A stretch of DNA of 64,000 bases from a virus (IMGVR_UViG_3300042564_004221:1-64000); one strand, 5' to 3'; counted from the first letter of the stretch, positions 7,281 through 38,795 are shown. The notes: generated by a model not told the origin, from the sequence alone. A program made the numbers and translations.

Positions 7281-7296
7281 TTGTTATTGTGTTTTA

Positions 7297-9072
7297 TTAT
7301 TGAGGATATGTAATACTATGGTAGAAAATTCCTCGTGTTGTTGGGTCATTGTCTACACTATTGCACACACCTCCATTAATTGTTGCTGCAAATGTGTTAA
7401 CAGTAAGACTTTGTTCTAGTTTAGTTGCACATCCATTTACGACAGTTCCATTATCAATCACCAAAATTGATGTTGACGTACCTGATATAACATCATTATA
7501 TCCAATTGTCATCTTATATGATTCACCTGACGATGTTATTCCCGATAAATATGTTGAACATCCCGCTCTAGGGTCATAAACTAATGCTGATGGTGGTGTT
7601 GTACTTGTTGGTGTAACCGTTGAACTATTTTTCTTAACAACTGTCGTTCCATTAATAGTTCCACTACCAGGAGTATAATATGCCTTATAATCGCCAGCAA
7701 TTAAAATAAACGATATCACAGTACCTACCGATAATGGAGGGTCTACATTAACTTTCCAAGTTGCTATTTGAGTTCCTGGTGAGGTATTAACAGTATTAAG
7801 TAAACTAACACCAATTGTATAACTTATAGGTCCACTTTGATTAGCAGATATTGATACATTGTTACTTACAGTATTATTTGTTGGTGTTGCAGAATCTTTA
7901 GTTATAACAGTATATGATGGTGACGCTCCTAATCCATTAAACACATTACTTGATTGGTATGTAATACCTCCATCAATTGAATATAGATAAGGTGAAACAC
8001 CAAAACTAGTTGTTAATATAATTGAACCATTATTTGATTCAGGACAAGTTTCGTTTTGTGCCGTTACCACTGATTTTAATGGTAAATATGGAGGACAAGT
8101 TCCTTGAGTCATTGAAATTTGTGCTGGTAGTCCTGGTCCATCCATTGACCACGCACTATCAGGAACATTTGATGTATTATAACTAACAGGTAAACCTGAA
8201 GTAAGTGTCCATCCTTGTATTTCCCATCTTGAAAAATCTACTGACCATTGAATGTCTAATTGATTCTCTTCATATGGTGTAGTCCAAGTTGGTCTACCAT
8301 TATAAGTACCATTTAACACAAATTGTGCTGGTCCATAACTTACACTTTGACCTCCGACACCTGAACCACCAACAAACACTAAACATAGATTTGGATAGGC
8401 AGGTGTTGCGGTTGGTGTTGGCGTTGGTGTAGTAGTTGTTGTTGGCGTTGGTGTTAACGGGAATAATCCGCAAACTGTAGTTGCGCTATAATCACCATAG
8501 TAATCAATCACAGTAACTTCATACGTTCCTCCACTTATATTAGTTAAAGTTTGATTTCTTTGACCTTTTGGCCAATAAAAAGAATAAGGAGCGGTTCCAC
8601 CTGTAACTAATACAGATAAACTACCATCAAGTGATGAAGCTGAGGTCGGAATAGTAATTGGATTACATATCAAACCCATTTCAAATAATGTAAATACTTC
8701 ACAGTCATTTTGAGATATAACAACAGGACTATTTGATGGTGTTTGGGTTGGAGTATGAGTTGGCGTTTGGGTTGGCGTATTTGTTGTGGTAGTTGTTGGT
8801 GTTATTGTTGTAGTTGGCGTTACAGTTGGCGTTGGAGTTGACGTTTTAGTCGGACAAACAGTAGTTGTTGGAACATTTAACTTTTGAATATTTCGATAAG
8901 GTCGTGTATAGTCCATTGAGACCGTTAGTTCCCTATTTCCAGTACCATTAATTAAATTACCACAACAATCATAATAAGTAAATCCTGTTGCCGTTGTAAC
9001 ACCCAGTCCACAAATAATTGGTGTTGCCGAAGGTGTTGCCGTAATGGTTGGTGTTGGAGTTGGTGTTGCCAT
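7297..9072 (-). CDS. Pro/Thr-repeat protein with SprB-like repeats (putative virion fibre or decoration protein)
   Basis: TPTPT tracts; GSLSVLVTGGTAPYSFYW...GTYEVTVID and ETCP...NGSI...PYLYSIDGG..YQ.SNVF.GL repeats. Confidence 0.7.
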   Translation of the reverse strand: MATPTPTPTITATPSATPIICGLGVTTATGFTYYDCCGNLINGTGNRELTVSMDYTRPYRNIQKLNVPTTTVCPTKTSTPTPTVTPTTTITPTTTTTNTPTQTPTHTPTQTPSNSPVVISQNDCEVFTLFEMGLICNPITIPTSASSLDGSLSVLVTGGTAPYSFYWPKGQRNQTLTNISGGTYEVTVIDYYGDYSATTVCGLFPLTPTPTTTTTPTPTPTATPAYPNLCLVFVGGSGVGGQSVSYGPAQFVLNGTYNGRPTWTTPYEENQLDIQWSVDFSRWEIQGWTLTSGLPVSYNTSNVPDSAWSMDGPGLPAQISMTQGTCPPYLPLKSVVTAQNETCPESNNGSIILTTSFGVSPYLYSIDGGITYQSSNVFNGLGASPSYTVITKDSATPTNNTVSNNVSISANQSGPISYTIGVSLLNTVNTSPGTQIATWKVNVDPPLSVGTVISFILIAGDYKAYYTPGSGTINGTTVVKKNSSTVTPTSTTPPSALVYDPRAGCSTYLSGITSSGESYKMTIGYNDVISGTSTSILVIDNGTVVNGCATKLEQSLTVNTFAATINGGVCNSVDNDPTTRGIFYHSITYPQ

Positions 9073-9121
9073 ATTTTAAATTCTTCTTATAAGTATAATA
9101 TTTTATAGTTTTTCATATCAA

Positions 9122-9769
9122 TTAAGGACATAATTGAAAACTCATTATATTACCACTTGTGTTTATTTGAACTACATAAAAATTAACCCCAAAACCCATT
9201 TTAAGATATTTATTTCCACCATTATATGGGTTATATAATGTACCACCCACCAATGTTTGGTAGATTGTTGCTCCGATAACAGGAACCAAGTTTGCCTGAC
9301 TTATATACGTATAATAATTAAGAATCGTAACTATGTCAGTACAAGTACTTGCAGAAGTAACCGATAAAGTATTACCAATTGCGTGATATGCGGCAACTGG
9401 TGTTGCCGTTGGTGTTGTAGTTAATGTCGGAGTTACAGTTGGTGTTACAGTTTTTGTAGGGGTAATAGTTGGTGTTTGGGTAACACTTGGTGTTATTGTT
9501 GGAGTTTGTGTTGGCGTGGGTGTTACTGTTTGTGTAGGACTATTGGTTGGAGTTGGCGTTATTTCAAGAGTGTATCCTATTTCACATCCTTGGTCATCAA
9601 TAATCTTAACCACAAAATCACCATAACCCAATGGGTCGGGTACTATAAATGAATATGGAAATGTTGTTGATGCTGTAACATAAATACAGCTAGCACTCAA
9701 AGAATTACAATAGTATATTTCTACGGGTGTGTTTGCGGTTATTGACGTTATGGTTACTAATTCACTCAT
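9122..9769 (-). CDS. Pro/Thr-linker protein with Cys-containing beta domains (putative virion protein)
   Basis: N-terminal domain resembles 9774..10001; central (TPT)n tract; ends in CP. Confidence 0.7.
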   Translation of the reverse strand: MSELVTITSITANTPVEIYYCNSLSASCIYVTASTTFPYSFIVPDPLGYGDFVVKIIDDQGCEIGYTLEITPTPTNSPTQTVTPTPTQTPTITPSVTQTPTITPTKTVTPTVTPTLTTTPTATPVAAYHAIGNTLSVTSASTCTDIVTILNYYTYISQANLVPVIGATIYQTLVGGTLYNPYNGGNKYLKMGFGVNFYVVQINTSGNIMSFQLCP

Positions 9770-9773
9770 ATTG

Positions 9774-10001
9774 TTATGGACAAGTCGTTACGGTTTCTTC
9801 ACCTGAAATTATGCATCCATTCGCATCAATCAATTTTAACATATAAGCACTTGATGTGTCATATGGGATTGGTATGTCAAAAATGTAAGGAGCGGAAGTG
9901 ATTGTTGTCATATAGAAACAACCTGAACCACCAGGTTGACATATATAAACGTCATATGGTGATTGTCCTGTAATACTGCTTATTGTTACTTGTACTGCCA
10001 T
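9774..10001 (-). CDS. Small stand-alone SprB-like beta-domain protein
   Basis: ITGQSPYDVY...KLIDANGC pattern; ends in CP. Confidence 0.65.
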   Translation of the reverse strand: MAVQVTISSITGQSPYDVYICQPGGSGCFYMTTITSAPYIFDIPIPYDTSSAYMLKLIDANGCIISGEETVTTCP

Positions 10002-10015
10002 TTATTTTATTAATA

Positions 10016-12190
10016 TTAAGGACATCCGTTTAATGTTAAAGTGTAATCAACACCCAAGACAGGTAGTGGAATAAATCCATCACCCCAAACAGGTTCAAAT
10101 GCGGAACTGTTAGGTAATGGAACTGTTGTATTAAGACATTTCCAATCACCTACAGCTGACAGTATAAGATTATTATTAGTACCAGGACATAAGTAATTAG
10201 GATTAATTGTGAATAGTATTGATGTGTCGTGACCTGTTGCAGTTGTTATATTTTCAATATAATATTCATAACATAATGGTGTTGTTACACAATCTTCACA
10301 GTTGTCGTAAACTGTATCAAACGCAGTTGCGAAGTAGTTTCCGCTATAATTAATTGGAAGGTAACCAACAGTTGGAATGTATGTAGTATTAAATTGTCCG
10401 ACATAAGTCCAACAAATTCCACTAGAATCTTTAAATGTTTGTCCAATAACAAGTGTTATTTGAGTTGGAATTGTTTGAATCACCTCAGTTGGTGTTATTT
10501 CTTGTTCAGGACAAGTTTGATATACATAAACATAATTAGGTGTTGGAGTCATAGTTGGAGTTTGAGTTGAAGTTTGAGTTGGAGTTTGAGTAGTTGTGGT
10601 GGTCGGTGTTGGTGTTACACTACTTGTTGGTGTTGGTGATAATCCTGGTGTTGGTGTTACCGTTGGAGTAGTAGTATTGGTAGGTGTTACCGTTGGAGTA
10701 GTAGTATTGGTAGGTGTTACCGTTGGTGTTACAGTTGGAGTGGTTGTACTAGTTTGTGTATTGGTTGGTGTCGGCGTTGGCGAACAATCTCCACAAGAAC
10801 CATATAAATTAACAACTTCAGTTACATATGAATTTGAAGATATATTTGCATCGTCTCTATCATAAGTTACACATACATAATTTCCGTTTATTATTGCAAG
10901 CATTGTTAAACCTATTGGTACAGGAATACCATCATAATTTAAATTATTGGCAACATAGTATTCTGTACCATCAGCACAAGATATTAACACTTTAACTGAA
11001 GTACAAGTGAATGTTTCATCTAACATCACAAACGATACTTGACCTTGAACATCACAAGTTTTTGTTAATGTTAAAGTTGGTGTAATTGAAGGTGTTGGTG
11101 TCGTATCATTATAACTACAGATACTAAAAGATACACCGACATTACATATAGGTGTTGGAGTAGGTGTTGGTGGTAATAAAGTTGCGGTAACATCAAAATT
11201 AACAACATCACAAGGAATGGTTGATGTCGGTGGTGTTGGCGTAGGTGGTATGTCACAATCAAAATACGCAACAAAATCAAATGTTACTGTATTAGTTATT
11301 GTTGGTGTAGGTGTTGGACATATTCCAACATTAAATAAATTTGCAGAGATGTCAGGACAATCAGTTTCACAAGGATATGAACCCTCAAGTAAACAAGTAC
11401 CACCTAAAGAAGTACTTAAACACCATCTGTCACCTGTATAATATATCGTTCCAAAATTAATACCATCACCCTCATAGTAATCTTTACCGTTATAAGTTGA
11501 TATTTTAGTATAATTTCCACTGTAACCTGAAAGTGACTGTAAATTTGTTCTTAAACAATAAACTGAAGGACATAATCCTGGCGTTGGTGTAACTGTTGGT
11601 GTTACTGTTGGTGTTACAGTATTTGTTGGTGTTATTGTTGGCGTTGGTGTTGGTGATGGGCAAATTCCACAGGTTGCACAATCCACGTATGGACCTGTAA
11701 ACACTCCACCTGAATTTATTACACCTGTTGCAGAATATGATAATACCGTAGCACAACCATCAAAAAGAGGACTAAAAATATTCCAAACTTCTCCAACGTT
11801 TAAAGTACCAGGCAAGTTTTCCCATCTAAATTGATTTGATGGATTACAACAATCTTGAAATAAATAGATATCGTAAGTTTCTGTCGGTGTAACTGTTGGC
11901 GTTGGAGTTAAGGTAGGTGTTGGCGATGGTGTTATTGCGGGTAACAATGAACAATTACCAAAATGTAATAATTGACAAGCAGCACAATCTTCAAACGTTG
12001 CAGTATAAACTATAGTTGTGTTTGTTACAGTTTGGGGTCCTGTTGGAACACCTAACCAACAAACATCATTCGCATCATAATAAACTGTTCCTACAACAAA
12101 CTGATTACCAGGTATTCCATTAATCGTAGGTGTCGTATCATATACGATATAGGCTGGGTTACTACAACACTGGATATAAAACGTGGTCAT
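10016..12190 (-). CDS. Cys-rich mucin-like Pro/Thr-repeat protein (putative virion protein)
   Basis: Several small Cys-rich modules ending in (Y/F)xDCxxC, separated by TPTPT linkers; ends in CP. Confidence 0.72.
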   Translation of the reverse strand: MTTFYIQCCSNPAYIVYDTTPTINGIPGNQFVVGTVYYDANDVCWLGVPTGPQTVTNTTIVYTATFEDCAACQLLHFGNCSLLPAITPSPTPTLTPTPTVTPTETYDIYLFQDCCNPSNQFRWENLPGTLNVGEVWNIFSPLFDGCATVLSYSATGVINSGGVFTGPYVDCATCGICPSPTPTPTITPTNTVTPTVTPTVTPTPGLCPSVYCLRTNLQSLSGYSGNYTKISTYNGKDYYEGDGINFGTIYYTGDRWCLSTSLGGTCLLEGSYPCETDCPDISANLFNVGICPTPTPTITNTVTFDFVAYFDCDIPPTPTPPTSTIPCDVVNFDVTATLLPPTPTPTPICNVGVSFSICSYNDTTPTPSITPTLTLTKTCDVQGQVSFVMLDETFTCTSVKVLISCADGTEYYVANNLNYDGIPVPIGLTMLAIINGNYVCVTYDRDDANISSNSYVTEVVNLYGSCGDCSPTPTPTNTQTSTTTPTVTPTVTPTNTTTPTVTPTNTTTPTVTPTPGLSPTPTSSVTPTPTTTTTQTPTQTSTQTPTMTPTPNYVYVYQTCPEQEITPTEVIQTIPTQITLVIGQTFKDSSGICWTYVGQFNTTYIPTVGYLPINYSGNYFATAFDTVYDNCEDCVTTPLCYEYYIENITTATGHDTSILFTINPNYLCPGTNNNLILSAVGDWKCLNTTVPLPNSSAFEPVWGDGFIPLPVLGVDYTLTLNGCP
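10653..10726. repeat. 30-bp tandem repeat (about 2.5 copies) encoding PTNTTTPTVT
   Basis: ggtgttaccgttggagtagtagtattggta is repeated exactly. Confidence 0.75.
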
Positions 12191-12210
12191 TTGTTATTAA
12201 ATAGTTTTTA

Positions 12211-12218
12211 TATAAATA
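12211..12218 (-). promoter_or_regulatory. Putative phage late-promoter motif TATTTATA
   Basis: 20 nt upstream of the ATG at 12190. Confidence 0.55.
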
Positions 12219-12289
12219 ACCTATTAGTCGGTTTTTATACAATATAAAAATAGAAATGTTAAAAGATAAATAAACACACCAATTAACTA

Positions 12290-12297
12290 TATTTATA
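12290..12297 (+). promoter_or_regulatory. Putative phage late-promoter motif TATTTATA (plus strand)
   Basis: 4 nt upstream of the ATG at 12302; the motif switches strand together with the gene. Confidence 0.5.
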
Positions 12298-12301
12298 TTA
12301 T

Positions 12302-12481: not shown

Positions 12482-12488
12482 GAAATAT

Positions 12489-13340
12489 TTAATATATTAG
12501 TTTAACCGCCTCACAAATACCACCCTCTGAATATGTTTGGTACCCCCTATGATGTAACCATCCATAGATTTCATCTTTTTTATCTTGTGGTAGGTTATAA
12601 TCTTCAAAGATTATAAAGTTTGGTAAAGTTATTTTAGATTCATCAATACCCATAATTAGTTGAGCATCCAACCCTTCTACATCTAAATGCAACCAATCAA
12701 TGTGTCCATAACATTCGGTTAAAATTAAGTCCGTAATACTAATTGAATCTCTTTTTGTTGATTTTATTTCTTCGGTTTCCCAATGTCTAATAACATTTTC
12801 AACTATAGTATTCGTATATCCTGCTCCGCCTTCAAAAAATTCAACTTCACCACCATTCGGAGTGATTAAAGATTGGATTGGTTTAACTAAAGTATTATTC
12901 TTGTAGTTATTTTTTAATTTTTCATATTGTTTGTCTGAGGCTTCAATTAAAACCACACTACATTCTCTTTTTTGAACGATTGGTACCCACTCACCGAATT
13001 CGCCATCATGAGTTCCAATAACCAAACCTTTTGGAAATATCCCTTTAGATAATAGCCCCTTGTTATACATCCATAATGATTTATAAAAATGGTTTCCGTG
13101 TTCCATAACATCCCACGTTTTAACATAGACAATTCTACCATTTGAATCGGTTATTTCAACATCAAACATCTCTGTATTTGGATATGTTGCAAACCAATAA
13201 TCATTTAAGTCAATTGACCATTGTTCTTCACCACTTACGTGTTTTTTAATTTTTAATTTGAATGGTAAGTTTTTATTGTATTTACTAATATTACCAACAT
13301 CAACTCGTATACCTTCTGTATTATATGTTACCTTTATCAT
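12489..13340 (-). CDS. FkbM-family SAM-dependent methyltransferase with N-terminal beta domain
   Basis: IGTHDG, LIEAS, IDWLHLDVEGLD and IIFE motifs. Confidence 0.75.
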   Translation of the reverse strand: MIKVTYNTEGIRVDVGNISKYNKNLPFKLKIKKHVSGEEQWSIDLNDYWFATYPNTEMFDVEITDSNGRIVYVKTWDVMEHGNHFYKSLWMYNKGLLSKGIFPKGLVIGTHDGEFGEWVPIVQKRECSVVLIEASDKQYEKLKNNYKNNTLVKPIQSLITPNGGEVEFFEGGAGYTNTIVENVIRHWETEEIKSTKRDSISITDLILTECYGHIDWLHLDVEGLDAQLIMGIDESKITLPNFIIFEDYNLPQDKKDEIYGWLHHRGYQTYSEGGICEAVKLIY

Positions 13341-13884
13341 TTTTGTGTTTTTCTATAAAAAAGTTTATATCTTGACTCCAAAGTATCATCGCTTCTTCCT
13401 TGATTTTACTCTCTTCCCAATCCCACCAAGCAATGTCCAATAAATCTTTTATTTGTTGTTCCTCAAATCTATACTTTAAATGTTTCGATGGGTTTCCACC
13501 AACAACAGAATAAGGTTCGACATCTTTGGTTACTAAAGCACCTGCGGCAACAATCGCCCCGTGTCCAATCTTAACACCCGACATTATTGTTGATTTTGCA
13601 CCAATCCAAACATCATTTCCAATGGTAATATCACCCTTACAAGATGGATGTCCCATCTCCATATGAAGTTTTGCTACTTCAGGTGTGACTGGTCCCCACA
13701 ATTGAGAACTCGTTGTTATCCAATCAGACCTGTGGTTCGCATGTAAAAACAAATTACAATCCCTACCGATAGAACAATATTTTCCAACCTTAATTTTATA
13801 TTCATCACTCCAAGAAATTATATTGACATTTCGGTCAAAATATGTTCCCCTGTCAGCACTCCATAAATGTATATTTTCAATCAT
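13321..13884 (-). CDS. Hexapeptide-repeat O-acetyltransferase (CatB/Vat-like fold)
   Basis: VGKYCSIG, H(R)SDWITT, KGDITIGNDVWIG, GVKIGHGAIVAAG, VVGGNP and WWDW motifs. Confidence 0.85.
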   Translation of the reverse strand: MIENIHLWSADRGTYFDRNVNIISWSDEYKIKVGKYCSIGRDCNLFLHANHRSDWITTSSQLWGPVTPEVAKLHMEMGHPSCKGDITIGNDVWIGAKSTIMSGVKIGHGAIVAAGALVTKDVEPYSVVGGNPSKHLKYRFEEQQIKDLLDIAWWDWEESKIKEEAMILWSQDINFFIEKHKNDKGNI

Positions 13885-13897
13885 ACTTAAATTTAAT

Positions 13898-17338: not shown

Positions 17339-17339
17339 A

Positions 17340-17924: not shown

Positions 17925-17928
17925 ATCT

Positions 17929-19940: not shown

Positions 19941-19941
19941 A

Positions 19942-20631: not shown

Positions 20632-20681
20632 ATCTTGAATAATAGACAAATTTTCTTATTTTTCAACTAAAACAAACATCT

Positions 20682-32800: not shown

Positions 32801-35077
32801 GCTTGAGCCAGAAGTTCCTGATGAACCTGAACTTCCACTTGTACCTGAAGAGCCACTTGAGCCTGAAGTTCCACTTGAGCCTGAAGAACCGCTTGTTCCA
32901 CTTGAACCTGAAGTTCCCGATGAACCTGAACTACCACTTATACCAGATGAACCTGAACTACCACTTATACCAGATGAACCTGAACTACCATTAGTCCCTG
33001 AAGAACCACTTGAACCAGATGTTCCTGAAGAGCCACTTGTTCCTGAAGAGCCACTTGTTCCTGACGAGCCACTTGTTCCTGATGAACCTGAAGAACCACT
33101 TGAGCCTGAACCTGATGTTCCAGATGAACCTGAACTTCCACTAGTTCCTGACGAACCACTTGAACCAGATGTCCCTGAACTACCACTTGAACCTGAGCTT
33201 CCACTTAAACCTGAACTACCGCTTGTCCCTGAACTACCCGAACTTCCGCTAGTTCCTGAAGAACCCGAACTGCCAGAACCTGATGTTCCTGATGAACCCG
33301 AACTTCCGCTAGTTCCTGAAGAACCACTTGTCCCTGAACTACCCGAACTTCCACTATTACCTGAAGAACCACTTGAACCTGATGTTCCCGAAGAACCTGA
33401 ACTTCCACTAGTACCCGAACTACCTGATGTTCCTGAACTTCCGCTAGTTCCTGATGAACCCGAACGACCGCTTGAGCCAGACGAACCTGAACTTCCACTA
33501 GTACCTGAAGAACCTGAACTTCCGCTAGTTCCTGATGAACCCGAAGTTCCTGATGAACCTGAGCTACCACCACTACCTGAACTTCCGCTAGTACCTGAAG
33601 AACCAGAGGTTCCTGATGAACCTGAACTTCCGTTAGTACCCGAACTACCTGATGTTCCGCTTGAACCACTTGTCCCTGAACTACCACTTGAACCTGATGT
33701 TCCAGATGAACCTGAACTTCCACCAGTCCCTGATGAACCACTTGAACCTGATGTTCCTGAACTTCCTGAACCAGATGTTCCCGAAGAACCTGAGCTACCT
33801 GAACCTGATGTTCCTGATGAACCCGAACTTCCACTTGTTCCTGAAGAACCACTTGAACCTGATGTTCCTGAAGAACCTGAACTACCCGAAGAACCATCTC
33901 CTCCTGAAGCTCCCTCCAAATTAGTATCCCAAGTACAAAAAGTACCTGTTCCTGATATTGCAGTTACTTGTAATACTAAAACACCCGTTAAAGGATTATA
34001 ACTAACAACTTGACCCGTGAAATAGTTAGTGACACTATTTGCAACAAGCACACTTTGTCCTATGGTATAAGAAAGTGAAAGTCCTACATTTAAGGTAGTA
34101 TTTAATCCAACTGTTAATCCGCTTAAAGTTATACAATCCGTAGATGAACCAGCATAATCGGGAGAAGTTCCACTTGTACCTGAACTACCACTTGAACCAC
34201 TTGAACCTGAAGAGCCACTTGAGCCCGAAGAGCCCGAGCTTCCACTTGAACCAGCATTTGTTGTAAATCCTGTTATTGTAACAACACCCCCATAGTTATT
34301 GACTAAGGTTAATGTTTCCGCAGAGCTACTAAACGTACCTCCTGTAATATATGTGTCGGTTAAACCTGTAATTGTTACGGTTCCACCTGTGGCATTATAA
34401 AGTTCTAAATTACCCGCATCATAATCCAAAGTACCACCTGTAACACCCGCCCCTGAACCTGATGTGATACCTGTGACTTGAATTACTGAACCTGTATTTG
34501 TAGTAAATAAAAGTGTATTACCCGAATAGGTTCCACCTGTAATAACAGGGTATGAACCATTAAAAATAATCCAATTTGAATCGTTTCTTGTTGCACCATT
34601 TTGACCTTCAATTGTTGAGCCAGTCCATGCGGTAATTAAATCAACACCTTGAGGTGTTGTTGACCTAACATTTGCACCATAATCACTAAAGATTACTGTA
34701 TTTGTTGCACCTGTCGCATTATCCCAAATGGTTTGATAATTGTCAATTTGAAATTGATAAAAAGTATTGCTCTCATACACATAAGCCAACATACCCAATC
34801 TTCTTCTACCTGTTGACCAATAGTCTGAGTTTAAAGTTAAGATATCAGGTGAATATCCAGCTCCCGTACCTTTAAAAAATTGAATAGGTATCGTTGAACC
34901 TGTTATAAAACCTGTTTGTCCTGAAAAGTTCCATACCAAGTCAGATAGGTTGGCAACCTCCATATAACCACCTGTATTAGATACAGAATAGGTTATACCA
35001 AAATTAGAAGTTGGTTCTAATGATAGTTGGAAACTTTGTCTCGACGCCGAGAGTGGATTATTATATGGAAAACTCAT
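23843..35077 (-). CDS. Giant Gly-Ser/Thr triplet-repeat (collagen-like) fibre protein, 3744 aa
   Basis: One open frame with a globular N-terminus, four (G-X-Y)n blocks, three copies of a ~90-aa inserted domain and a globular C-terminus. Start is coupled to the upstream gene by a TAATG overlap at 35075-35079. Confidence 0.85.
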   Translation of the reverse strand: MSFPYNNPLSASRQSFQLSLEPTSNFGITYSVSNTGGYMEVANLSDLVWNFSGQTGFITGSTIPIQFFKGTGAGYSPDILTLNSDYWSTGRRRLGMLAYVYESNTFYQFQIDNYQTIWDNATGATNTVIFSDYGANVRSTTPQGVDLITAWTGSTIEGQNGATRNDSNWIIFNGSYPVITGGTYSGNTLLFTTNTGSVIQVTGITSGSGAGVTGGTLDYDAGNLELYNATGGTVTITGLTDTYITGGTFSSSAETLTLVNNYGGVVTITGFTTNAGSSGSSGSSGSSGSSGSSGSSGSSGTSGTSPDYAGSSTDCITLSGLTVGLNTTLNVGLSLSYTIGQSVLVANSVTNYFTGQVVSYNPLTGVLVLQVTAISGTGTFCTWDTNLEGASGGDGSSGSSGSSGTSGSSGSSGTSGSSGSSGTSGSGSSGSSGTSGSGSSGTSGSSGSSGTGGSSGSSGTSGSSGSSGTSGSSGTSGSSGTNGSSGSSGTSGSSGTSGSSGSGGSSGSSGTSGSSGTSGSSGSSGTSGSSGSSGSSGRSGSSGTSGSSGTSGSSGTSGSSGSSGTSGSSGSSGNSGSSGSSGTSGSSGTSGSSGSSGTSGSGSSGSSGTSGSSGSSGTSGSSGLSGSSGSSGSSGTSGSSGSSGTSGSSGSSGTSGSGSSGSSGSSGTSGSSGTSGSSGTSGSSGTSGSSGSSGTNGSSGSSGISGSSGSSGISGSSGSSGTSGSSGTSGSSGSSGTSGSSGSSGTSGSSGSSGTSGSSGSSGTSGVNGSSGSSGTSGSSGSSGTSGSSGTSGSSGSSGTSGSSGSSGISGSSGSSGTSGSSGSSGTNGSSGSSGSSGTSGSSGSSGTSGTSSDYSGLSTDCITLSGLTVGLNITLTASTNLSYTIGQSVLVANSVSNYFTGKVISYNPSTGVLVLQVTAISGTGTFCNWETNLEGASGGDGSSGTSGSSGSSGTSGVNGSSGSSGTSGSSGSSGTNGSSGSSGTSGSGSSGSSGTSGSSGSSGTSGVNGSSGSSGTSGSSGSSGTSGANGSSGSSGTSGSSGSSGTSGSSGTSGSSGANGSSGSSGTSGSSGSSGTSGSSGSSGTSGSSGSSGSSGRSGSSGTSGTSGSSGTSGTSGSSGTSGSSGTNGTSGSSGSSGTSGINGSSGSSGTSGTSGSSGTSGSSGSSGTSGANGSSGSSGTSGTSGSSGTSGSSGTSGSSGSSGSSGSSGSSGRSGSSGTSGSSGTSGSSGTSGTSGANGSSGSSGTSGSSGTSGSSGTSGSSGTSGSSGSSGTSGANGSSGSSGTSGSSGTSGSSGSSGTSGVNGSSGSSGTSGSSGSSGTSGSSGSSGTSGSSGSSGTSGSSGSSGSSGSSGRSGSSGTSGSSGTSGSSGSSGTSGANGSSGSSGTSGSSGSSGTSGSSGSSGTSGANGSSGSSGTSGSSGSSGTSGSSGSSGTSGANGSSGSSGTSGSSGSSGASGSSGSSGTSGSSGSSGRSGSSGTSGSSGTSGSSGTSGSSGSSGTSGTSGSSGLSGTSGSSGSSGTSGSSGSSGTNGSSGSSGTSGTSGSSGTSGSSGSSGTSGSSGSSGTSGSSGSSGTSGSSGSSGTSGSSGSSGTSGSSGTSGSSGSSGSSGSSGSSGTSGINGSSGSSGTSGSSGSSGTNGSSGSSGSSGTSGSSGTSGSSGSSGTSGTSSDYSGLSTDCITLSGLTIGLNVSLNVGAGLSYTIGQNVLIANSVTNYFTGKVVSYNPSTGALVLEVTSISGTGTFCSWESNLEGASGGDGSSGTSGSSGSSGSSGSSGSSGTSGSSGSSGTSGSGSSGSSGSSGSSGSSGRSGSSGTSGSSGTSGSSGTSGSSGSSGTAGSSGSSGSSGTSGSSGTSGSSGSSGTSGANGSSGSSGTSGSSGSSGTSGSSGSSGSSGRSGSSGTSGSSGTSGSSGTSGSSGSSGTSGANGSSGSSGTSGSSGGSGTSGSSGSSGTSGANGSSGSSGTSGSSGSSGTSGVNGSSGSSGTSGSSGSSGSSGSSGTSGSSGSSGTSGANGSSGSSGTSGSSGSSGSSGRSGSSGTSGSSGTSGSSGTSGSSGSSGTSGTSGSSGSSGTSGANGSSGSSGTSGSSGTSGANGSSGSSGTSGSSGSSGTSGANGSSGSSGTSGSSGSSGTSGSSGSSGSSGRSGSSGTSGSSGTSGSSGTSGSSGSSGTSGANGSSGSSGTSGSSGSSGTSGANGSSGSSGTSGSSGTSGTSGSSGTSGSSGSSGSSGSSGSSGRSGSSGTSGSSGTSGSSGSSGTSGTSGSSGSSGTSGSSGTSGSSGSSGSSGSSGRSGSSGTSGSSGTSGSSGTSGSSGSSGTSGANGSSGSSGTSGSSGSSGTSGSSGSSGTSGANGSSGSSGTSGTSGSSGTSGSSGSSGTSGSSGSSGSSGSSGRSGSSGTSGSSGTSGSSGTSGSSGTSGSSGSSGTSGSSGSSGTSGSSGSSGTSGSSGSSGISGANGSSGSSGTSGSSGTSGSSGSSGSSGTSGSSGSSGSSGSSGRSGSSGTSGSSGSSGTSGTNGSSGSSGTSGSSGSSGSSGSSGSSGRSGSSGTSGSSGTSGSSGTSGSSGSSGTSGVNGSSGSSGTSGSSGSSGTSGSSGSSGTSGANGSSGSSGTSGSSGSSGTSGSSGTSGSSGSSGTSGSSGTSGSSGSSGTSGTSGSSGTSGSSGSSGRSGSSGTSGSSGTSGSSGTSGSSGSSGTSGANGSSGSSGTSGSSGSSGTSGSSGSSGTSGVNGSSGSSGTSGSSGSSGTSGSSGSSGTSGVNGSSGSSGTSGSSGSSGTSGSSGSSGSSGRSGSSGTSGSSGTSGSSGTSGSSGSSGTSGINGSSGSSGTSGSSGSSGTSGANGSSGSSGTSGSSGSSGTSGANGSSGSSGTSGSSGTSGSSGSSGSSGTSGSSGSSGSSGSSGRSGSSGTSGSSGTSGSSGTSGSSGSSGTSGANGSSGSSGTSGSSGSSGTSGANGSSGSSGTSGSSGSSGSSGSSGTSGSSGSSGSSGVSGSSGSSGSSGRSGSSGTSGSSGTSGSSGTSGSSGSSGTSGSSGSSGTSGSSGSSGTSGANGSSGSSGTSGSSGSSGSSGTSGTSGSSGTSGSSGSSGTSGSSGSSGTSGANGSSGSSGTSGSSGSSGTSGSSGSSGSSGSSGTSGSSGSSGSSGRSGSSGTSGSSGTSGSSGTSGSSGSSGTSGANGSSGSSGTSGSSGSSGTSGANGSSGSSGTSGSSGSSGTSGSSGSSGSSGRSGSSGTSGSSGTSGSSGTSGSSGSSGTSGINGSSGSSGTSGSSGSSGTSGANGSSGSSGTSGSSGSSGSSGSSGSSGRSGSSGTSGSSGTSGSSGSSGTSGANGSSGSSGTSGSSGSSGTSGTSGSSGTSGSSGSSGTSGANGSSGSSGTSGSSGSSGTSGANGSSGSSGTSGSSGSSGSSGRSGSSGTSGSSGTSGSSGTSGSSGSSGTSGANGSSGSSGTSGSSGSSGTSGSSGSSGTSGSSGSSGSSGSSGSSGASGSSGSSGSSGSSGRSGSSGSSGTNGSSGSSGASGAAGSSGSSGASGSSGSSGSSGASGAAGSSGSSGTSGAAEVTAVVQVTSGTISSMVTPDSANPVITDYYYGNANEGWNGGVWDELVAPTPAPKDHLHNFAPIVIADGTTSLTFRLCGNAYFYGYLTDTSAELYANILIADCDLFTNGGQGTDVDYIQLFGDSESGHSVSISATGMVCFDFEKQYSISSSCQYQAAVALVVVSDDTNSSKLDFSYQLRVIQ
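24390..34254. repeat. Degenerate 9-bp-period coding repeat (GSS/GTS/GAN/GRS triplets) in four blocks
   Basis: Continuous gaacc/cctga/ccactt pattern, interrupted at about 29805-30065, 32265-32526 and 33908-34166. Confidence 0.92.
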
Positions 35078-36105
35078 TATGCTACTGTATTACCTTTAAA
35101 GTAAATATTATCGTTGTCTATTATATAGAACGCTACGTCCGCAAATGTTGTATAAACTTTATAAGTGTTTGGCGGTATTGTTGTTCCTGTATATGTGAAC
35201 GAATTATTTCTTATTGTTGAATCTGTTATGACTGTACTCAACGTATTTGCAACTATACCAAAGTCAATCTGTGTTTGTTCTAATCCATTTGTGGCACTTA
35301 CTGGAATAACCCAAGTATACCAAGCAGCAACTCCAATACTTCCAGCTGGTACTTGGTGTGTTATAAAGTTATAAGCGGTAATTGCGTTTCCATAAGCGTC
35401 AAGACCTCCCGAAGTTTGTGGTACCACCTCAAGTTGTACCGCAGGGAATGTTCCACCCGTCCAACCTGAGAATGATACGTATTGGTTCATATCAATATTA
35501 AATTGAGTTGGGTTTATCGTATTAGGTATTGAAGAATTTGTGAATCCAAAGAATGTTCTTGAACTATCCAAATCATACAAGTATTGTCCGATACTTGTTG
35601 AACCTGTTTGAGGTTCAATAAATAAGTAAGCGAAATCAACTGATGGAGTCGATGACGGTGTAGGAGTTGGAGTTGGACTAGTACCAGGACCTTGTGTTGG
35701 AGTCGGAGTAACCGTTGGAGTAACTGTCGGCGTACGTGTATTTGTTGGAGTTACTGTCGGTGTACGTGTATTTGTTGGAGTTACTGTTGGTGTTCGTGTA
35801 TTTGTAGGTGTAATACTTGGAGTAACCGTATTAGTTGGAGTAATAGTTGGTGTTGGTGTTGGTGTTTTAGTTGGAGTTGGTGTAACACAAGCCAAGTTTA
35901 TCGTAACACCACTTAACATTTGTGTTTTTGTTTGAGCCGAATAATAGATTGTTTCATCCAAATAAACATTAAACGGACCAATGGCAGTTGAATTAGATGT
36001 TAACTTAACAAGATATGTAGAACACCCGCTTACGGTTACTTGCTGTTCTATCGCAGCATCACACCCCTCATAAATATTTGTAACGGTTATTACGTATGTT
36101 AACAT
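35077..36105 (-). CDS. Pro/Thr-linker virion-type protein
   Basis: Two beta-rich domains joined by about 80 aa of TPT repeats; translationally coupled to the giant fibre gene. Confidence 0.72.
35731..35810. repeat. 30-bp tandem repeat encoding [10 protein letters not shown]
   Basis: gtacgtgtatttgttggagttactgt(c/t)gg, about 2.5-3 copies. Confidence 0.7.
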
Positions 36106-36169
36106 CTAAAGTATTTTTCTAATAAATACCTTAACACATTGATTTTACCATAAAAATGGGGTTATTTAA

Positions 36170-36442
36170 TTAAACCTCCTCAACTATGATTTGAAATGCA
36201 CAACCATAGGTACATTCTAATATTTTAGTTGTTTCACAACCCTCAGAAGATACGACCTTTATCATTATTTCAGGTGCGGTGTCAAATATCTCAGGAATTG
36301 TTGAATTAAATGATTGTGAGGGGGGCACGGGACCAGGATTTATCGTACCAACTAATGTTTCATAATTACCAAAAATATTTGACACATAAACACTCATTGG
36401 ATAGGTACATCCCGATATTGCTTCTATTCTTACTTGTATCAT
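36170..36442 (-). CDS. Small stand-alone SprB-like beta-domain protein
   Basis: VRIEAISG..YP..VY...IP...IKVVSSEGC; similar to 9774..10001. Confidence 0.65.
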   Translation of the reverse strand: MIQVRIEAISGCTYPMSVYVSNIFGNYETLVGTINPGPVPPSQSFNSTIPEIFDTAPEIMIKVVSSEGCETTKILECTYGCAFQIIVEEV

Positions 36443-36452
36443 TATAAAAATA

Positions 36453-38795
36453 TTATGAAGGAGTCATAGTTGGAGTTGGAGTTTTAGTTGGAGTTACGGT
36501 AGGAGTTGCAGTTTTGGTTGGTGTAATGCTTGGTGTCACGGTATTTGTAGGTGTAATACTTGGAGTAACTGTATTAGTAGGAGTAACAGTTGGAGTAACT
36601 GTATTAGTAGGAGTTGTGGTTGGCGTAGGAGTTGTGGTTGGGGTAGGTGTTGGTAATTCACAAGATAAACACATTATATCATAAACAATCGTTAATTCAA
36701 CAACAATTTCTTGCCCATTTAATGTTGTGTCTCCAGCTCTAGTACTAACTTTTATTTGATTACTTACTGAATCGAAGGACACTCCCCCAACACCAGGAAC
36801 TGTTAACAATAAATCTTTAACCGTATCATAATATAAGTTATCGCTTGGTGCCGATACTAATGATGTGGATGTAAAGAAATTTTGACTTGTAGTTAAATTC
36901 AACGGGTTAACCGAAACCTTAACGCCAAATACCGCAGAAAGTAAATCACAATTTACTTTATCAATTGTTAAATCATTAAACCCTTCATTTAACATTTGAA
37001 GTAATCCATATTTTGTTTGTGATTGAATTGTAAATTGTTCACCACCCATCACATAGGTTTGATATGACACATTAAGAGCACTACAATCTATAATTGTACT
37101 TCTTGTTAAAATACAACCATCGTCAGCAACAACAGTTAAACTGTATGTCCCTGCGGTCAATCCTGTAACTTGAATTTGTTGTGGATTATTAGGAACATTG
37201 TCTGACCAATAAAATTCAAATGGTGGTGTTCCTGTTGAAATTAATGCGGTTAACAACCCATCGGAACCTTCTCCACAAGAAGTATTATATAATGAAAAAT
37301 CTAATGGTTCACTTGTGTCAACATAAACTTGTGTCGTTTGAGTACATCCTGTGGCATCGGTAACTGTTATAGTGTGTTGTCCCCAAGATACATTTGTAAA
37401 TGTAACTGCAGATAATGAAGTGTCAAAAATATCTTGAGTGGCATCTAATGAATAATAGTAAGGAGGTTGTCCACCATCACTTTTTGTAACTATAATTGTA
37501 CCATTAGCTTGATTACAAGTTGTTCCTGTAACCTCAGTTGAAATTGTGTATGTATCTGTCGCAAATAAACTGATTTCTTCTATAAACGAACATCCTGAGG
37601 CATCTTGAATCGCAACGCTATAAGTTCCTGTTGATAAATTATTAAATAATTGAGACGATTGTGAAGTTGCTATGTTAGAAGTATTTCCATTAGGATATAT
37701 TAAGGTGTATAAATATGGTGAAGTTCCTCCCGCTAAAGACACTAAAATAGAACCGTCGCTACTTGAGCATGTTGAACCCTGACTTGAGATTACTACTGAC
37801 GCAACACCTAACGGAGTTAATAAAGTTACACTAGCATTTAAAGTACAAAAAGCACAATCCGTAACTAAAAAGTTATAATTACCTGAAGATAATCCACTAA
37901 TTGTCCAAGATGTCGATTCTTGTATCGTAAAATTTCCTGTAGAGGCAGAATAATAATAAGGTGCCGTTCCACCTGTAATTTGTATTGTTATTGAACCGTC
38001 CGCGGCAAAACAAGATGGTTGAACCACAGTAAAGACTCCAAGTCCAATTGGGGAAACATCTGTTACTGTCGCACCTTGACTAGCAACACAACCAAAATTA
38101 TCAGTAACTTGAACTGAATAATTTCCAGCGGTTAACCCTGTAATAAGTGGAGTTGTTTGTCCATTACTCCATAAATAAGTAAATGGCTGTGTTCCTGTAA
38201 CACCTGTTATTCCAATTCTTCCCACAGGTGTACCACCACAACTTGAATTTGGTACCACTTGAATACCAAAACTAAGTGGTGTTGAATCCTCGATTATAAA
38301 ATTTTGACTTTCTCCTGAACATCCTCCCAAATCTTCAGCAGTCATATAATATGTTCCCGCAGTTAAACTACCAAAAATAACATTTGATGTGTTTGTAACT
38401 GCTGATGTGATATAACTTCCATTACCCGAATATAAATAAAAGTTTGTTGAGGAATAATCTGAAGTAGATGTTCCTGTCACTATACCGTTATCTAAACCGC
38501 AAGTGGTACTTTGAACATTTAAAATACTAACACAAATACCTGAAGATATTGGTATGTTAACATAGAATTGTTGGTTTGTTGGTAAGGTACTATCATTAAC
38601 TAAAACACCATACGTCCCCGCACTTAAAGATGTTCTAACAGATGGTAATATTGTTACAACATCTGAACCTAAATTTGGTACTTGCCAATCAATAGTATAT
38701 GGTGGAGTTCCTCCATACGCTAATATGGATGCACTCCCCGCCGATAGTGATAAACAATCACCTGTTATTGATATGGTATAATTAAATGCTGACAT
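36453..38795 (-). CDS. SprB-repeat protein with C-terminal Pro/Thr tail
   Basis: About 7 repeats of C....G.I...GGT.PY.Y.W......GL.AG.Y...V.D..GC. Confidence 0.78.
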   Translation of the reverse strand: MSAFNYTISITGDCLSLSAGSASILAYGGTPPYTIDWQVPNLGSDVVTILPSVRTSLSAGTYGVLVNDSTLPTNQQFYVNIPISSGICVSILNVQSTTCGLDNGIVTGTSTSDYSSTNFYLYSGNGSYITSAVTNTSNVIFGSLTAGTYYMTAEDLGGCSGESQNFIIEDSTPLSFGIQVVPNSSCGGTPVGRIGITGVTGTQPFTYLWSNGQTTPLITGLTAGNYSVQVTDNFGCVASQGATVTDVSPIGLGVFTVVQPSCFAADGSITIQITGGTAPYYYSASTGNFTIQESTSWTISGLSSGNYNFLVTDCAFCTLNASVTLLTPLGVASVVISSQGSTCSSSDGSILVSLAGGTSPYLYTLIYPNGNTSNIATSQSSQLFNNLSTGTYSVAIQDASGCSFIEEISLFATDTYTISTEVTGTTCNQANGTIIVTKSDGGQPPYYYSLDATQDIFDTSLSAVTFTNVSWGQHTITVTDATGCTQTTQVYVDTSEPLDFSLYNTSCGEGSDGLLTALISTGTPPFEFYWSDNVPNNPQQIQVTGLTAGTYSLTVVADDGCILTRSTIIDCSALNVSYQTYVMGGEQFTIQSQTKYGLLQMLNEGFNDLTIDKVNCDLLSAVFGVKVSVNPLNLTTSQNFFTSTSLVSAPSDNLYYDTVKDLLLTVPGVGGVSFDSVSNQIKVSTRAGDTTLNGQEIVVELTIVYDIMCLSCELPTPTPTTTPTPTTTPTNTVTPTVTPTNTVTPSITPTNTVTPSITPTKTATPTVTPTKTPTPTMTPS

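Follow-up and report, generated by a model that had tools for sequence, protein, structure and literature searches.

Does a phage that carries sugar-transfer and sugar-tailoring genes beside the gene for a giant serine-rich protein use them to sugar-coat its own virion? This question is raised by a locus in a 64,000-nucleotide stretch of DNA (referred to here as the window) from a large uncultured lake phage. The window is best explained as part of a jumbo myovirus with a genome of about 300 kb, encountered repeatedly in lake water. A sequence-only reading had described a glycan island inside the tail/baseplate module, flanked by Pro/Thr-rich proteins and abutting a giant Ser/Thr-rich protein. 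The island (12489-23842) indeed comprises 11 ORFs, recognized by family matches as sugar-transfer and tailoring genes, and its giant neighbour (23843-35077) encodes 3744 amino acids, of which 2042 are Ser or Thr. Similarly, Pro/Thr-rich linkers of 33-93 residues each are present in five flanking proteins (7297-12190 and 35077-38795). The location inside a tail/baseplate module was correct for the right side of the island, where a gp6-like gene (51553-53391) and a gp25-like gene (53397-53873) are found, but not for the left flank, where replication-type and unknown genes lie beyond position 7268. The island is placed among late structural genes. The features of the locus, with the evidence for each in brackets, are:

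7297-9072, minus strand: Pro/Thr-linker protein with SprB repeats (linker and SprB matches)
9122-9769, minus strand: Pro/Thr-linker protein (linker)
10016-12190, minus strand: Pro/Thr-linker protein (linker)
12489-13340, minus strand: FkbM methyltransferase (family match)
13321-13884, minus strand: hexapeptide-repeat O-acetyltransferase, Vat/CatB-like (family match)
13898-14521, minus strand: alpha/beta-hydrolase, carboxylesterase-type (PF02230, E 1e-18; absent from G002)
14521-16386, minus strand: DUF6625 protein, 621 aa (PF20330, E 2e-29; 51% identical homologue in G002)
16376-17338, minus strand: 320-aa protein (52% identical homologue in L003)
17340-17924, minus strand: NeuD/PglD/VioB-type sugar N-acetyltransferase (TIGR03570, 161.6 bits, cut-off 160.8)
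17929-19299, minus strand: fusion of GT8 and Methyltransf_24 (family match)
19296-19940, minus strand: short DegT/PseC-like protein, 214 aa (PF01041, only profile positions 26-97 of 360)
19942-20649, minus strand: FkbM methyltransferase (family match)
20682-22964, plus strand: fusion of GT4 (aa about 90-390) and a full-length TibC-like BAHT (aa 405-755), 760 aa
22964-23842, plus strand: BAHT-2, 292 aa, TibC/Aah-type without the N-terminal beta-barrel
23843-35077, minus strand: collagen-like fibre gene, 3744 aa (PF01391, 1229.9 bits)
23846-24370, minus strand: fibre C-terminus, globular domain of about 175 aa (homologue in L040 at 58% identity)
29792-30076, minus strand: insert copy 3 (81% identical to copy 1)
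32252-32536, minus strand: insert copy 2 (84% identical to copy 1)
33893-34177, minus strand: insert copy 1, small beta-barrel (AF2 model, pLDDT 84, 18-sequence alignment)
34223-35077, minus strand: fibre N-terminus, domain spanning aa 1-285, presumed virion-attachment end
35077-36105, minus strand: Pro/Thr-tract protein (linker)
36453-38795, minus strand: Pro/Thr-tract protein with five SprB repeats (74-aa C-terminal PT tail)

The term mucin-like would misdescribe the giant protein, which is a strict, proline-free Gly-X-Y collagen-like fibre. It comprises an N-terminal globular domain, four Gly-[S/T]-S blocks, three beta-barrel inserts of 83-95 aa and a C-terminal globular domain, and the overall composition amounts to 44% S, 29% G and 11% T. 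The Gly-X-Y register extends over 3027 residues with a longest run of 1764 residues, compared to the minimum of 6 uninterrupted triplets asked of a collagen-like repeat, and Gly is found at every third residue along the fibre with interruptions of six 2-residue breaks. At the X position S (0.61), T (0.30) and A (0.05) are found, and the Y position is occupied by S (0.93) or N (0.06). Regarding residues that stabilize collagens, the fibre has no Pro at all and charged residues are nearly nil, so that neither Pro/Hyp nor Lys-Glu/Asp salt bridges are available; no experimental precedent was found for a triple helix of (GSS)n that lacks both proline and charge. Pfam gave no match to the N-terminal or the C-terminal domain. 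The N-terminal domain has counterparts of 73-84% identity in three viral contigs, and in the ESM Atlas it comes closest to clusters of viral PF01391 collagen proteins (score 0.94), which is taken as a lead only. When the model of insert copy 1 was compared to the PDB, no confident match was obtained. The C-terminal domain, for which single-sequence AF2 gave a pLDDT of 31, possibly functions in trimerisation or receptor binding. Homologues of the fibre end domains occur in L007, L040 and L126-128, and in the relative L218 the end of the collagen gene resembles, by eye only, a tail-fibre intramolecular-chaperone domain.

Both genes that are convergent with the fibre gene encode proteins previously named Aah/TibC homologues, and matches to PDB 4RAP and TIGR04414 as well as conserved residues identify them as true members of the BAHT (bacterial autotransporter heptosyltransferase) family, which is characterised by heptosyl transfer to serines of the adjacently encoded protein and by assembly into dodecamers. 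The 760-aa protein aligns with TibC residues 23-380 (4RAP, E 4.6e-40) and reaches 224.5 bits with TIGR04414, above the cut-off of 200. It possesses the N-terminal beta-barrel, as indicated by a PF21129 match (E 7.5e-5) and by the alignment starting at TibC residue 23, and orthologues of this GT4-BAHT protein, 55-85% identical, are present in 41 viral loci. BAHT-2, whose stop codon adjoins that of the fibre gene, aligns with residues 106-379 of 4RAP (E 6e-27) and, lacking the barrel, scores 186.8 bits with TIGR04414 and so misses the cut-off of 200. In TibC, Asp-110 is the catalytic base, Thr-226 and Lys-230 are ligands of the beta-phosphate, Trp-305 contacts the sugar, and Arg-286 contacts adenine N1, which means specificity for an ADP-activated donor (PMC4358343). 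Asp-110, Thr-226, Lys-230 and Trp-305 are invariant in both window enzymes and in all 44 viral BAHTs, and so are, in the 44 viral BAHTs, all four iron-finger cysteines (Cys-339/342/358/370). In contrast, the position of Arg-286 is Val in the 760-aa protein, Thr in BAHT-2 and V, I, T, S or L, never Arg, in the 44 viral BAHTs, whereas Arg is kept in 69 of 80 bacterial BAHT loci. The equivalent of P300 is Gly in the 760-aa protein and Ser in BAHT-2. Arg/Cys-type BAHTs form one clade (support 0.964) and all viral enzymes fall outside it. Since Arg-286 is replaced in every phage enzyme, the donor is probably not ADP-heptose or is bound differently. Also, the heptose pathway gene GmhA was not found in five related phage genomes and, together with the loss of Arg-286, this suggests that the chemistry of phage BAHTs may differ from that of the family prototype.

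If BAHTs act on the fibre, both should be found together in other genomes, and the proposed co-occurrence of Aah/TibC homologues with (GSS/GTS)n genes was confirmed in numerous lineages of phages, whether the search began with the enzyme or with the repeat, and is specific to one enzyme subfamily. Collagen-like ORFs were detected in 17 of the 41 viral BAHT loci and in 15 of the 18 whose flank measures 12 kb or more, compared to none of 80 sheath-centred control loci (1.02 Mb) from the same clade, although many loci are related and such pairing counts are therefore not independent events. Gly-X-Y genes at a distance of up to 5.3 kb from a BAHT gene were all of the Ser/Thr-type. Only one GSS-type gene each is present in G002 (317 kb, complete), G001 (295 kb) and G003 (191 kb), located 1.8-10 kb from the BAHT genes. 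For the reverse test, 14 large contigs were chosen by the GSS DNA pattern alone, and BAHT was encountered in 11 of them, among these all five with a completeness of at least 90%; the three contigs that show no BAHT are all incomplete. Neither BAHT nor a GSS gene is present in G016 and G019, two complete relatives. Adjacency is not universal, as the BAHT of G026 is 40 kb away from the repeat, going by the first repeat matches listed for that contig. GSS genes are also found beside BAHTs that are 29-41% identical to the window enzymes (L176, L198 and L206), and the same gene pair was seen in the cultured Microcystis phage Mel-JY01 as well as in two contigs of bacterial MAGs. Across the 80 BAHT loci from bacteria, long GSS-type collagen genes, with 819 and 522-567 repeat residues, were found only beside the non-Arg BAHTs of L338 and L398, and the Arg-type locus L351 has a short GSS stretch of 63 residues. 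In syntenic phages with collagen genes of the Pro/Lys-type, the slot after the collagen gene is taken by a fusion of GT4, GT25 and 2OG-oxygenase (seen in L016, L018, L153 and L218), for which chemistry of the collagen hydroxylase/glycosyltransferase type is predicted. No published description of the pairing of BAHT with a GSS fibre was found.

As the pairing recurs in many phages, this phage probably sugar-coats its own fibre. With moderate confidence we propose that the BAHTs glycosylate the serine-collagen fibre and that the island extends and tailors the glycan; gene content, family membership, residue conservation and genomic co-occurrence are the basis from which we infer the fibre as acceptor, the assembly of the glycan and all functions. 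The product of 23843-35077 would be a trimeric collagen-like virion fibre with about 1000 Gly-[Ser/Thr]-Ser triplets. The BAHTs (20682-22964 and 22964-23842) would be soluble cytoplasmic enzymes which most likely attach the initial sugar to fibre-chain serines while still in the cytoplasm, either ahead of trimerisation or in its course. Known BAHTs O-glycosylate serines of an adjacently encoded repetitive protein in the cytoplasm, and TibC modifies Ser but not Thr (PMC4358343), in agreement with a fibre in which Ser makes up 93% of Y positions. Next, the glycan would be extended by the GT4 part of the fusion and by GT8, possibly together with the DUF6625 protein and the 320-aa protein, the last of which gave no Pfam or NCBIfam match. 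Tailoring would fall to the FkbM methyltransferases, the Methyltransf_24 domain, both acetyltransferases and the esterase, and the alpha/beta-hydrolase (13898-14521) is possibly a glycan de-O-acetylase. Homologues of the FkbM gene at 19942-20649 adjoin BAHT in L005, L008, L015 and L206, and the DegT-like gene is the most conserved one of the island (88-93% identical in L003 and L005). The glycan would coat the fibre and may replace hydroxyproline in helix stabilisation, by analogy with BclA and with galactosyl-threonine collagen peptides; galactosylation turns (Gly-Pro-Thr)10 from a coil into a triple helix (PMC11923368). Stability, protease protection, adhesion and host-surface mimicry, the roles put forward at first, would be conceivable functions of such a coat.

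Alternatively, the island might glycosylate other virion proteins (Pro/Thr-linker, SprB-repeat, sheath or baseplate proteins), and the collagen-like gene would be a mere neighbour in a variable fibre module. Pro/Thr-linker proteins flank the island here and in the closest relatives (L007, L040 and G002), the GT4-BAHT gene is located immediately upstream of the sheath gene in more distant relatives, and the several GT domains of the island could serve different acceptors. However, the suggestion that the (TPT)n proteins belong to the same enzyme-substrate set as the BAHTs was not supported, with Pro/Thr-linker ORFs in 2 of the 41 BAHT loci, or about 1 per 100 kb. They track another cluster, being present in 55 of 72 loci centred on GT60 (PF11397) at 12.2 per 100 kb, with 145 such ORFs in the 72 GT60 loci versus 0 in 80 control loci, which reflects conserved synteny in one clade as the GT60 loci are close relatives. 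The contig itself has a GT60/GT25/HtrL cluster at 93.8-98.3 kb, 70 kb off, in which the GT60 gene (97082-98347; PF11397, E 5e-59) lies beyond the window. The Pro/Thr-linker proteins at 7297-12190 are therefore probably not BAHT substrates, and it is more likely that such proteins are served by the separate GT60/GT25/HtrL cluster. Also, BAHT tracks GSS genes across lineages of differing synteny, the pair is found in MAG contigs without a nearby sheath gene, and among at least 591 contigs with sheath the closest 80 have no BAHT nearby. We consider it unlikely, then, that the island acts on these other virion proteins.

The enzymes might also act on phage DNA or on the host rather than on the virion; in the host, for example, surface proteins, LPS or capsule could be altered so as to exclude superinfection or mask receptors. 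Phage glycosyltransferases are best known for glucosylating DNA and converting O-antigens (reviewed in PMC12619734), and enzymes of the FkbM, GT4, GT8 and PglD types commonly belong to polysaccharide loci. A host or DNA target is nevertheless quite improbable, given that every characterised BAHT is a protein serine O-glycosyltransferase (PMC4358343), that no transmembrane segments were predicted in any island enzyme, that family searches revealed no flippase, polymerase, ligase or initiating phosphoglycosyltransferase in the island, and that the island sits amid late structural genes; moreover, such targets would not account for the specific link with GSS genes. Finally, the giant ORF might be a mis-assembled or hypervariable DNA repeat instead of a real 3744-aa protein, with enzyme genes that are unrelated to it. 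Its longest exact internal repeat is 141 nt, assemblies of relatives stop within the homologous fibre gene, and in none of four other lake metagenomes does a contig extend across the repeat, the length of which could be mis-assembled. Against such an artefact, 23843-35077 is the sole stop-free frame of six across 11.2 kb, the Gly periodicity is broken only by its six short interruptions, and serine is encoded by both codon families (AGY 35%, TCN 65%). The N-terminal, C-terminal and insert domains have conserved counterparts in other phages, and the unique parts of the fibre are matched exactly by contigs of the 4 other lake metagenomes, independent samples all. Among RNA runs, none was found to contain the region. 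That the fibre is an artefact thus seems hardly credible.

Glycosylation of the phage's own serine-collagen fibre, the explanation we prefer, has likenesses to several known systems. In mycobacteriophages, phage-encoded glycosyltransferases by structural genes O-glycosylate virion proteins, but there the sugars are attached to C-terminal tails of the capsid and tail-tube subunits, the enzymes belong to other families and no collagen-like fibre is known to take part (Freeman et al. 2023, cited in PMC12619734). Mucin-type O-glycosylation, with GT60 initiators and Pro/Thr tracts, is matched by the GT60 cluster of the contig, outside the window. The Mimivirus protein L230 is a lysyl hydroxylase/glucosyltransferase. 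In Mimivirus, whose fibril glycosylation is virus-encoded (PMC9614988), collagen-like proteins and modifying enzymes are both encoded by the virus, with acetyl- and methyl-tailoring of amino sugars. This eukaryotic giant virus, however, modifies hydroxylysine and is not known to have BAHT or Ser-type collagen. Its logic of hydroxylase plus glycosyltransferase is mirrored by the four fusions of GT4, GT25 and 2OG-oxygenase. BclA is a collagen-like glycoprotein of the exosporium nap of Bacillus anthracis/cereus and reportedly carries O-linked oligosaccharides including methylated and acylated sugars (Daubenspeck et al. 2004, cited in PMC11923368). It shares with the proposed phage system the Gly-X-Y repeat with a hydroxy amino acid at Y, the formation of surface filaments and dedicated sugar genes close by, but it belongs to a bacterial spore, is mostly Gly-Pro-Thr, short (tens of triplets) and glycosylated at Thr by unrelated transferases. 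TibC reads a folded beta-helix, that of an autotransporter passenger, via its iron finger, whereas the candidate acceptor in the phage is a Gly-X-Ser collagen-like fibre, and as an acceptor such a Gly-X-Y chain differs greatly from that passenger. The E. coli systems TibC-TibA and Aah-AIDA-I (BAHT; TIGR04414; PDB 4RAP/4RB4; PMC4358343) employ the same enzyme family as the phage (E 4.6e-40), the catalytic Asp, the Thr/Lys phosphate ligands, the Trp and the four iron-finger Cys are kept in the phage BAHTs, and in both cases the enzyme gene adjoins a gene for a long, repetitive, serine-rich protein. In contrast to TibC and Aah, all 44 viral enzymes have Arg-286 replaced and fall outside the Arg-type autotransporter clade, and the phage copies, one fused to GT4 and one barrel-less, are accompanied by methyl- and acetyltransferases.

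The two plus-strand enzymes assigned to the TibC/Aah-type glycosyltransferase family (BAHT) and the giant protein that they abut are encoded as follows:
20682-22964, plus strand: GT4-fused BAHT, 760 aa
22964-23842, plus strand: second BAHT, 292 aa
23843-35077, minus strand: giant protein, 3744 aa

The giant protein is predicted to be a collagen-like fibre, matching PF01391 with 1229.9 bits. Ser and Thr together make up 2042 of its residues, and Gly occupies every third position across 3027 residues, with a longest unbroken run of 1764 residues and only six 2-residue breaks and three 83-residue inserts. The X position holds Ser (61%), Thr (30%) or Ala (5%), the Y position Ser (93%) or Asn (6%), and the repeats are free of proline and nearly uncharged. 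With the usual collagen rise of 0.286 nm per residue, their length would come to about 0.87 micrometre, a value that relies on an assembly not confirmed across the repeats. The three inserts are 81-84% identical copies of a domain also present inside many other Gly-Ser-Ser proteins; an AF2 model made from 18 sequences gave a small beta-barrel (pLDDT 84), a Foldseek search of the PDB returned only weak matches to ATPase N-terminal barrels (E ~1e-2), and the modelled fold is treated as a generic beta-barrel. Pfam searches with the N- and C-terminal domains gave no matches, and a single-sequence AF2 model of the C-terminal domain was unusable (pLDDT 31).

The 48% GC of the fibre gene was considered as a mark of horizontal transfer and rejected, as Gly and Ser codon content accounts for it. 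Summed contig depth over 24368-34174 reached thousands, against 5-50 on the flanks, in four lake metagenomes; these are multi-mapping sums and not copy numbers, and the samples are therefore rich in Gly-Ser-Ser-type repeats from many organisms. The assemblies of the large contigs G001, G002 and G034 and of 100-180 kb relatives (G009, G013, G015 and G020) start or stop inside a Gly-Ser-Ser gene, so that assembly breaks systematically at the repeat, and those 'linear' contigs that are rated complete probably represent circularly permuted genomes cut at this point. At 23842/23843 the stop of the plus-strand BAHT and that of the minus-strand fibre gene abut with zero intergenic bases, and convergent transcripts must therefore overlap or terminate within the partner gene. 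A perfect tandem (Gly-Ser-Thr)n DNA repeat at G033:C1:138480-138649, in a 210-kb viral contig without BAHT, is of a different kind, being exact and having Thr at the Y position.

Comparison with TibC (PDB 4RAP) aligned the 760-aa protein with residues 23-380 (E 4.6e-40), above the curated TIGR04414 cut-off, and the 292-aa protein, which lacks the N-terminal barrel, with residues 106-379 (E 6e-27). The two share 31% identity, and both are true TibC/Aah relatives. In TibC, Asp-110 acts as catalytic base, the beta-phosphate is contacted by Thr-226 and Lys-230, Trp-305 contacts heptose O4, Pro-300 determines stereoselectivity, Cys-339/342/358/370 form the iron finger, and Arg-286 contacts adenine N1, which explains the use of ADP-sugars (PMC4358343). 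Among 44 non-identical viral BAHTs all of these key residues are invariant except Pro-300, replaced by Ser or Gly, and Arg-286, which is never Arg and instead Val, Ile, Thr, Ser or Leu; the replacement of Arg-286 is the one consistent difference between TibC and the phage enzymes. The invariance means that the catalytic machinery is intact, but does not fix the donor nucleotide-sugar. No GmhA, which catalyses the first step of heptose synthesis, turned up in five related phage genomes, and the search for a phage-encoded ADP-heptose pathway gave only one weak cytidylyltransferase-like match each in G002 and in Microcystis phage Mel-JY01.

The sequence-only reading had proposed examining whether BAHTs co-occur across phages with (GSS)n and (TPT)n genes; for the (GSS)n genes, which are Gly-[Ser/Thr]-Ser collagen-like genes, co-occurrence was found from both search directions. 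An IMG/VR scan for orthologues of the GT4-BAHT gave 41 loci, in which an open reading frame with at least 60 repeat residues was counted as collagen-like. Such frames were present in 17 of the 41 loci, in 15 of the 18 where the flank reached at least 12 kb, and in none of 80 sheath-centred control loci of the same clade (1.02 Mb). All Gly-X-Y genes within 5.3 kb of a BAHT were of the Ser/Thr type. For the apparent exceptions L003/L004 and L023, the GSS gene lay just beyond the fetched flank; L016-L018 are short contigs, and synteny with locus L153 suggests that their GSS gene would lie beyond the contig end. In the 317-kb contig G002 the sole Ser/Thr-type Gly-X-Y gene spans the contig ends and begins 1.8 kb from the BAHT pair, in G001 every GSS pattern match falls at a contig end, some 10 kb away from BAHT, and in G003, another large contig, matches lie 3.5 kb from BAHT.

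The reverse search, with a degenerate DNA pattern of seven Gly-[S/T]-[S/T] triplets, yielded at least 120 viral stretches. Five short stored chunks with the repeat also held a BAHT, two more had a related GT4 at the chunk edge, and the chunk enzymes included ones just 29-41% identical to those of the window. When large parent contigs were searched whole, BAHT was found in 11 of 14 (E 1e-81 or better); each of the five contigs with a completeness rating of 90% or more had it, and these five include a 548-kb genome. Among the matches listed, BAHT and repeat lay 0.3 kb, about 5 kb, 7 kb and 40 kb apart, the last (contig G026) possibly overstated as it uses the first pattern places only. The complete relatives G016 and G019 carry neither BAHT nor repeat. 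Large contigs picked by sheath or GT60 had the GSS pattern in 6 of 15 cases; its listed positions were at or near a contig end, and the missing BAHT there therefore says little. Many loci are related, so that these counts are not independent events, and the argument is carried by recurrence across differing synteny, at low enzyme identity and from both search directions.

Bacterial BAHT loci (n = 80) had Arg-286 in 69 cases, Cys in six and another non-Arg residue in five. Long GSS-type genes were found in bacteria only beside two of these last five, in a Bacteroides MAG (L338) and an Ignavibacteriaceae MAG (L398), with 819 and 522-567 repeat residues; a Bordetella locus of the Arg type (L351) had a short Ser/Thr Gly-X-Y stretch of 63 residues on the opposite strand. 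In a maximum-likelihood tree the Arg/Cys-type BAHTs formed one clade (support 0.964), outside of which fell all viral BAHTs and four of the five non-Arg MAG enzymes, the fifth (L340, Chloroflexota) being sister to this clade.

The same gene pair occurs in a cultured phage, which makes the hypothesis directly testable. Mel-JY01 (PP395634) encodes at 4750-8430 a 1226-aa FkbM+GT4+BAHT fusion that is 45.5% identical to the window enzyme, and about 1.7 kb upstream an open reading frame of 1016 codons (2-3049, plus strand), inside which the record begins, encodes a Gly-[Thr/Ser]-Ser collagen-like protein (PF01391, 220.6 bits). The repeat part of this frame is unannotated on the plus strand in the record; the annotated CDS 739-2298 on the opposite strand is a shadow frame, so that the annotation places the collagen gene on the wrong strand.

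The window covers the beginning of a 99,789-bp IMG/VR virus record of about 32% completeness (CheckV), and includes two baseplate genes:
51553-53391: gp6-like baseplate wedge
53397-53873: gp25-like wedge

A ribonucleotide reductase, a DnaB-type helicase and a gp32-like protein were also among the phage genes found, and farther on the contig encodes tail sheath, tail tube, baseplate hub and a family-B DNA polymerase. The virus is a jumbo myovirus, because the collinear relative G002 measures 317,259 bp and is rated complete. Even the closest isolates are remote, with about 27% identity in the wedge protein for both Flavobacterium phage immuto and Mel-JY01. Two neighbouring proteins carry SprB repeats, which are only a hint at a Bacteroidota host. 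Bacteroidota jumbo phages with four core glycosyltransferase groups, their substrates not named, were described in the 'moraphage' paper (PMC12619734). The BAHT region recurs near word-for-word in about 19 further lake-water metagenome studies, the expression look-up listed no RNA dataset containing it, and a PHROGs search left neighbour genes mostly without match. The open reading frame crossing the window end (61940-64000) runs on to contig position 69199, giving a 2419-aa protein followed by one of 1680 aa; neither has a family match, and both are kept in G002.

All the elements from which the sequence-only reading was built, namely the 11-gene island (12489-23842), its Pro/Thr-linker flanks (7297-12190 and 35077-38795) and the Ser/Thr-rich 3744-aa frame, were found where it had placed them. 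The island comprises nine minus-strand and two plus-strand frames. Family searches assigned two FkbM methyltransferases, a Vat/CatB-like O-acetyltransferase, an alpha/beta-hydrolase esterase, a NeuD/PglD-type N-acetyltransferase, a DUF6625 protein, a GT8+Methyltransf_24 fusion, a truncated DegT-like protein, the GT4+TibC-like fusion and the second TibC-like protein, and gave no match for a 320-aa protein. The DegT-like protein (19296-19940, 214 aa) matches only the N-terminal quarter of DegT/PseC aminotransferases, and its gene is the most conserved of the island, with 88-93% identity in loci L003 and L005 as opposed to 50-75% for its neighbours. Membrane-helix-type hydrophobic segments are absent from every island enzyme, and the family searches revealed no flippase, polymerase, ligase or initiating phosphoglycosyltransferase in the island, which looks like a cytoplasmic pathway modifying its acceptor directly and not an undecaprenyl-linked one.

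On balance, the collagen-like fibre probably receives O-linked sugars on its serines from the BAHT enzymes; with less assurance, the other island enzymes may extend and methylate or acetylate the fibre glycan. That the enzymes instead target the host or DNA seems quite improbable to us, given the recurrence of BAHTs near Ser/Thr-type repeats. An artefactual giant frame would fit the finding that no contig in four independent lake metagenomes spans the repeats, where thousands of multi-mapping pieces and joints are uninformative on length. The same metagenomes match the unique fibre parts exactly, the N-terminal domain shares 73-84% identity with three other viral contigs and the C-terminal domain 58% with locus L040. 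The gene looks real: the other five frames all contain stops, and Ser is drawn from both codon families, so that selection acts at the protein level rather than on a repeat in the DNA; an artefact is the least probable explanation.

Acceptors might also be other virion proteins, such as the five proteins flanking the island, with Pro/Thr-rich linkers of 33-93 residues. The sequence-only reading had placed these (TPT)n proteins in the same system as the BAHTs, a part that was not supported, as PT-linker frames occurred in only 2 of 41 BAHT loci, both closest relatives, and accompany GT60 loci instead. In 72 GT60-centred loci there were 145 such frames (12.2 per 100 kb, versus 0 in the sheath controls), within 10 kb of the GT60 gene and on one side of it, and in G002 four PT-linker proteins directly follow the GT60 cluster. 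As the GT60 loci are close relatives (60-91% identity), this is conserved synteny in one clade and not independent evidence. The genes concerned lie outside the window on its full contig (G000):
93799-98347 (L045:9799-14347): second glycosyltransferase cluster, with an HtrL-like protein of 558 aa, a 296-aa protein of no family, GT25 and GT60
97082-98347: the GT60 gene (PF11397, E 5e-59)

For the PT-linker proteins this cluster is a candidate system of mucin-type O-glycosylation, and other virion proteins as BAHT acceptors appear improbable. O-glycosylation of fibre serines would carry the BAHT family, so far known from proteobacterial autotransporter adhesins alone, over to viruses and to an entirely different acceptor fold, and give a function to a very abundant class of aquatic-phage proteins. 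By analogy with (Gly-Pro-Thr)10, which passes from coil to triple helix on galactosylation (PMC11923368), the glycan may plausibly stabilise a triple helix in serine collagen. We found no published description of phage BAHTs or serine-type phage collagens in a literature of incomplete coverage, and searches on heptosyltransferase with collagen-like phage proteins, TibC in bacteriophage, 'Gly-Ser-Ser' collagen and Mel-JY01 gave nothing relevant. That viruses can encode the glycosylation of virion proteins, and also that of collagen-like proteins, is already known.

Other collagen types in these phages have other enzymes beside them. The slot of the GT4-BAHT immediately upstream of the sheath, tube and hub genes is occupied in locus L218 by an 820-aa GT4+GT25+2OG-Fe(II) oxygenase fusion, and the adjoining collagen-like protein mixes Gly-Ser-Ser blocks with Gly-X-Lys and Gly-Pro-X blocks. 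Homologous fusions directly follow Pro/Ile/Gln/Lys-type collagen genes in L016, L017, L018 and L153, where GT4-BAHT is also present; the fusion-bearing phages are related through tail-module synteny. Positions of the fusions are:
L218:5063-7522
L016:4314-6683
L018:3589-5919
L153:3352-5736

It thus seems that every collagen type is accompanied by a modifying enzyme of its own, which makes the assignment of BAHT to serine collagen more credible. More tentatively, and with doubts that outweigh our expectation, this may be a new collagen: a proline-free, uncharged Gly-Ser/Thr-Ser triple helix of up to ~0.9 micrometre whose folding and stability would depend on dense serine O-glycosylation by a virus-specific TibC/Aah branch, sugars replacing hydroxyproline, with related phages using a hydroxylase + GT25 fusion in the same slot for Pro/Lys collagens. 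If true, a natural glycosylation-stabilised collagen would be of biomaterials interest, and a near-micrometre sugar-coated fibre would alter ideas of how jumbo phages find their hosts. In animal and Mimivirus collagen, lysine is hydroxylated and glycosylated by enzymes of the GT25 and 2OG oxygenase types, and the phage GT4+GT25+2OG fusions resemble this lysyl hydroxylase/glycosyltransferase logic.
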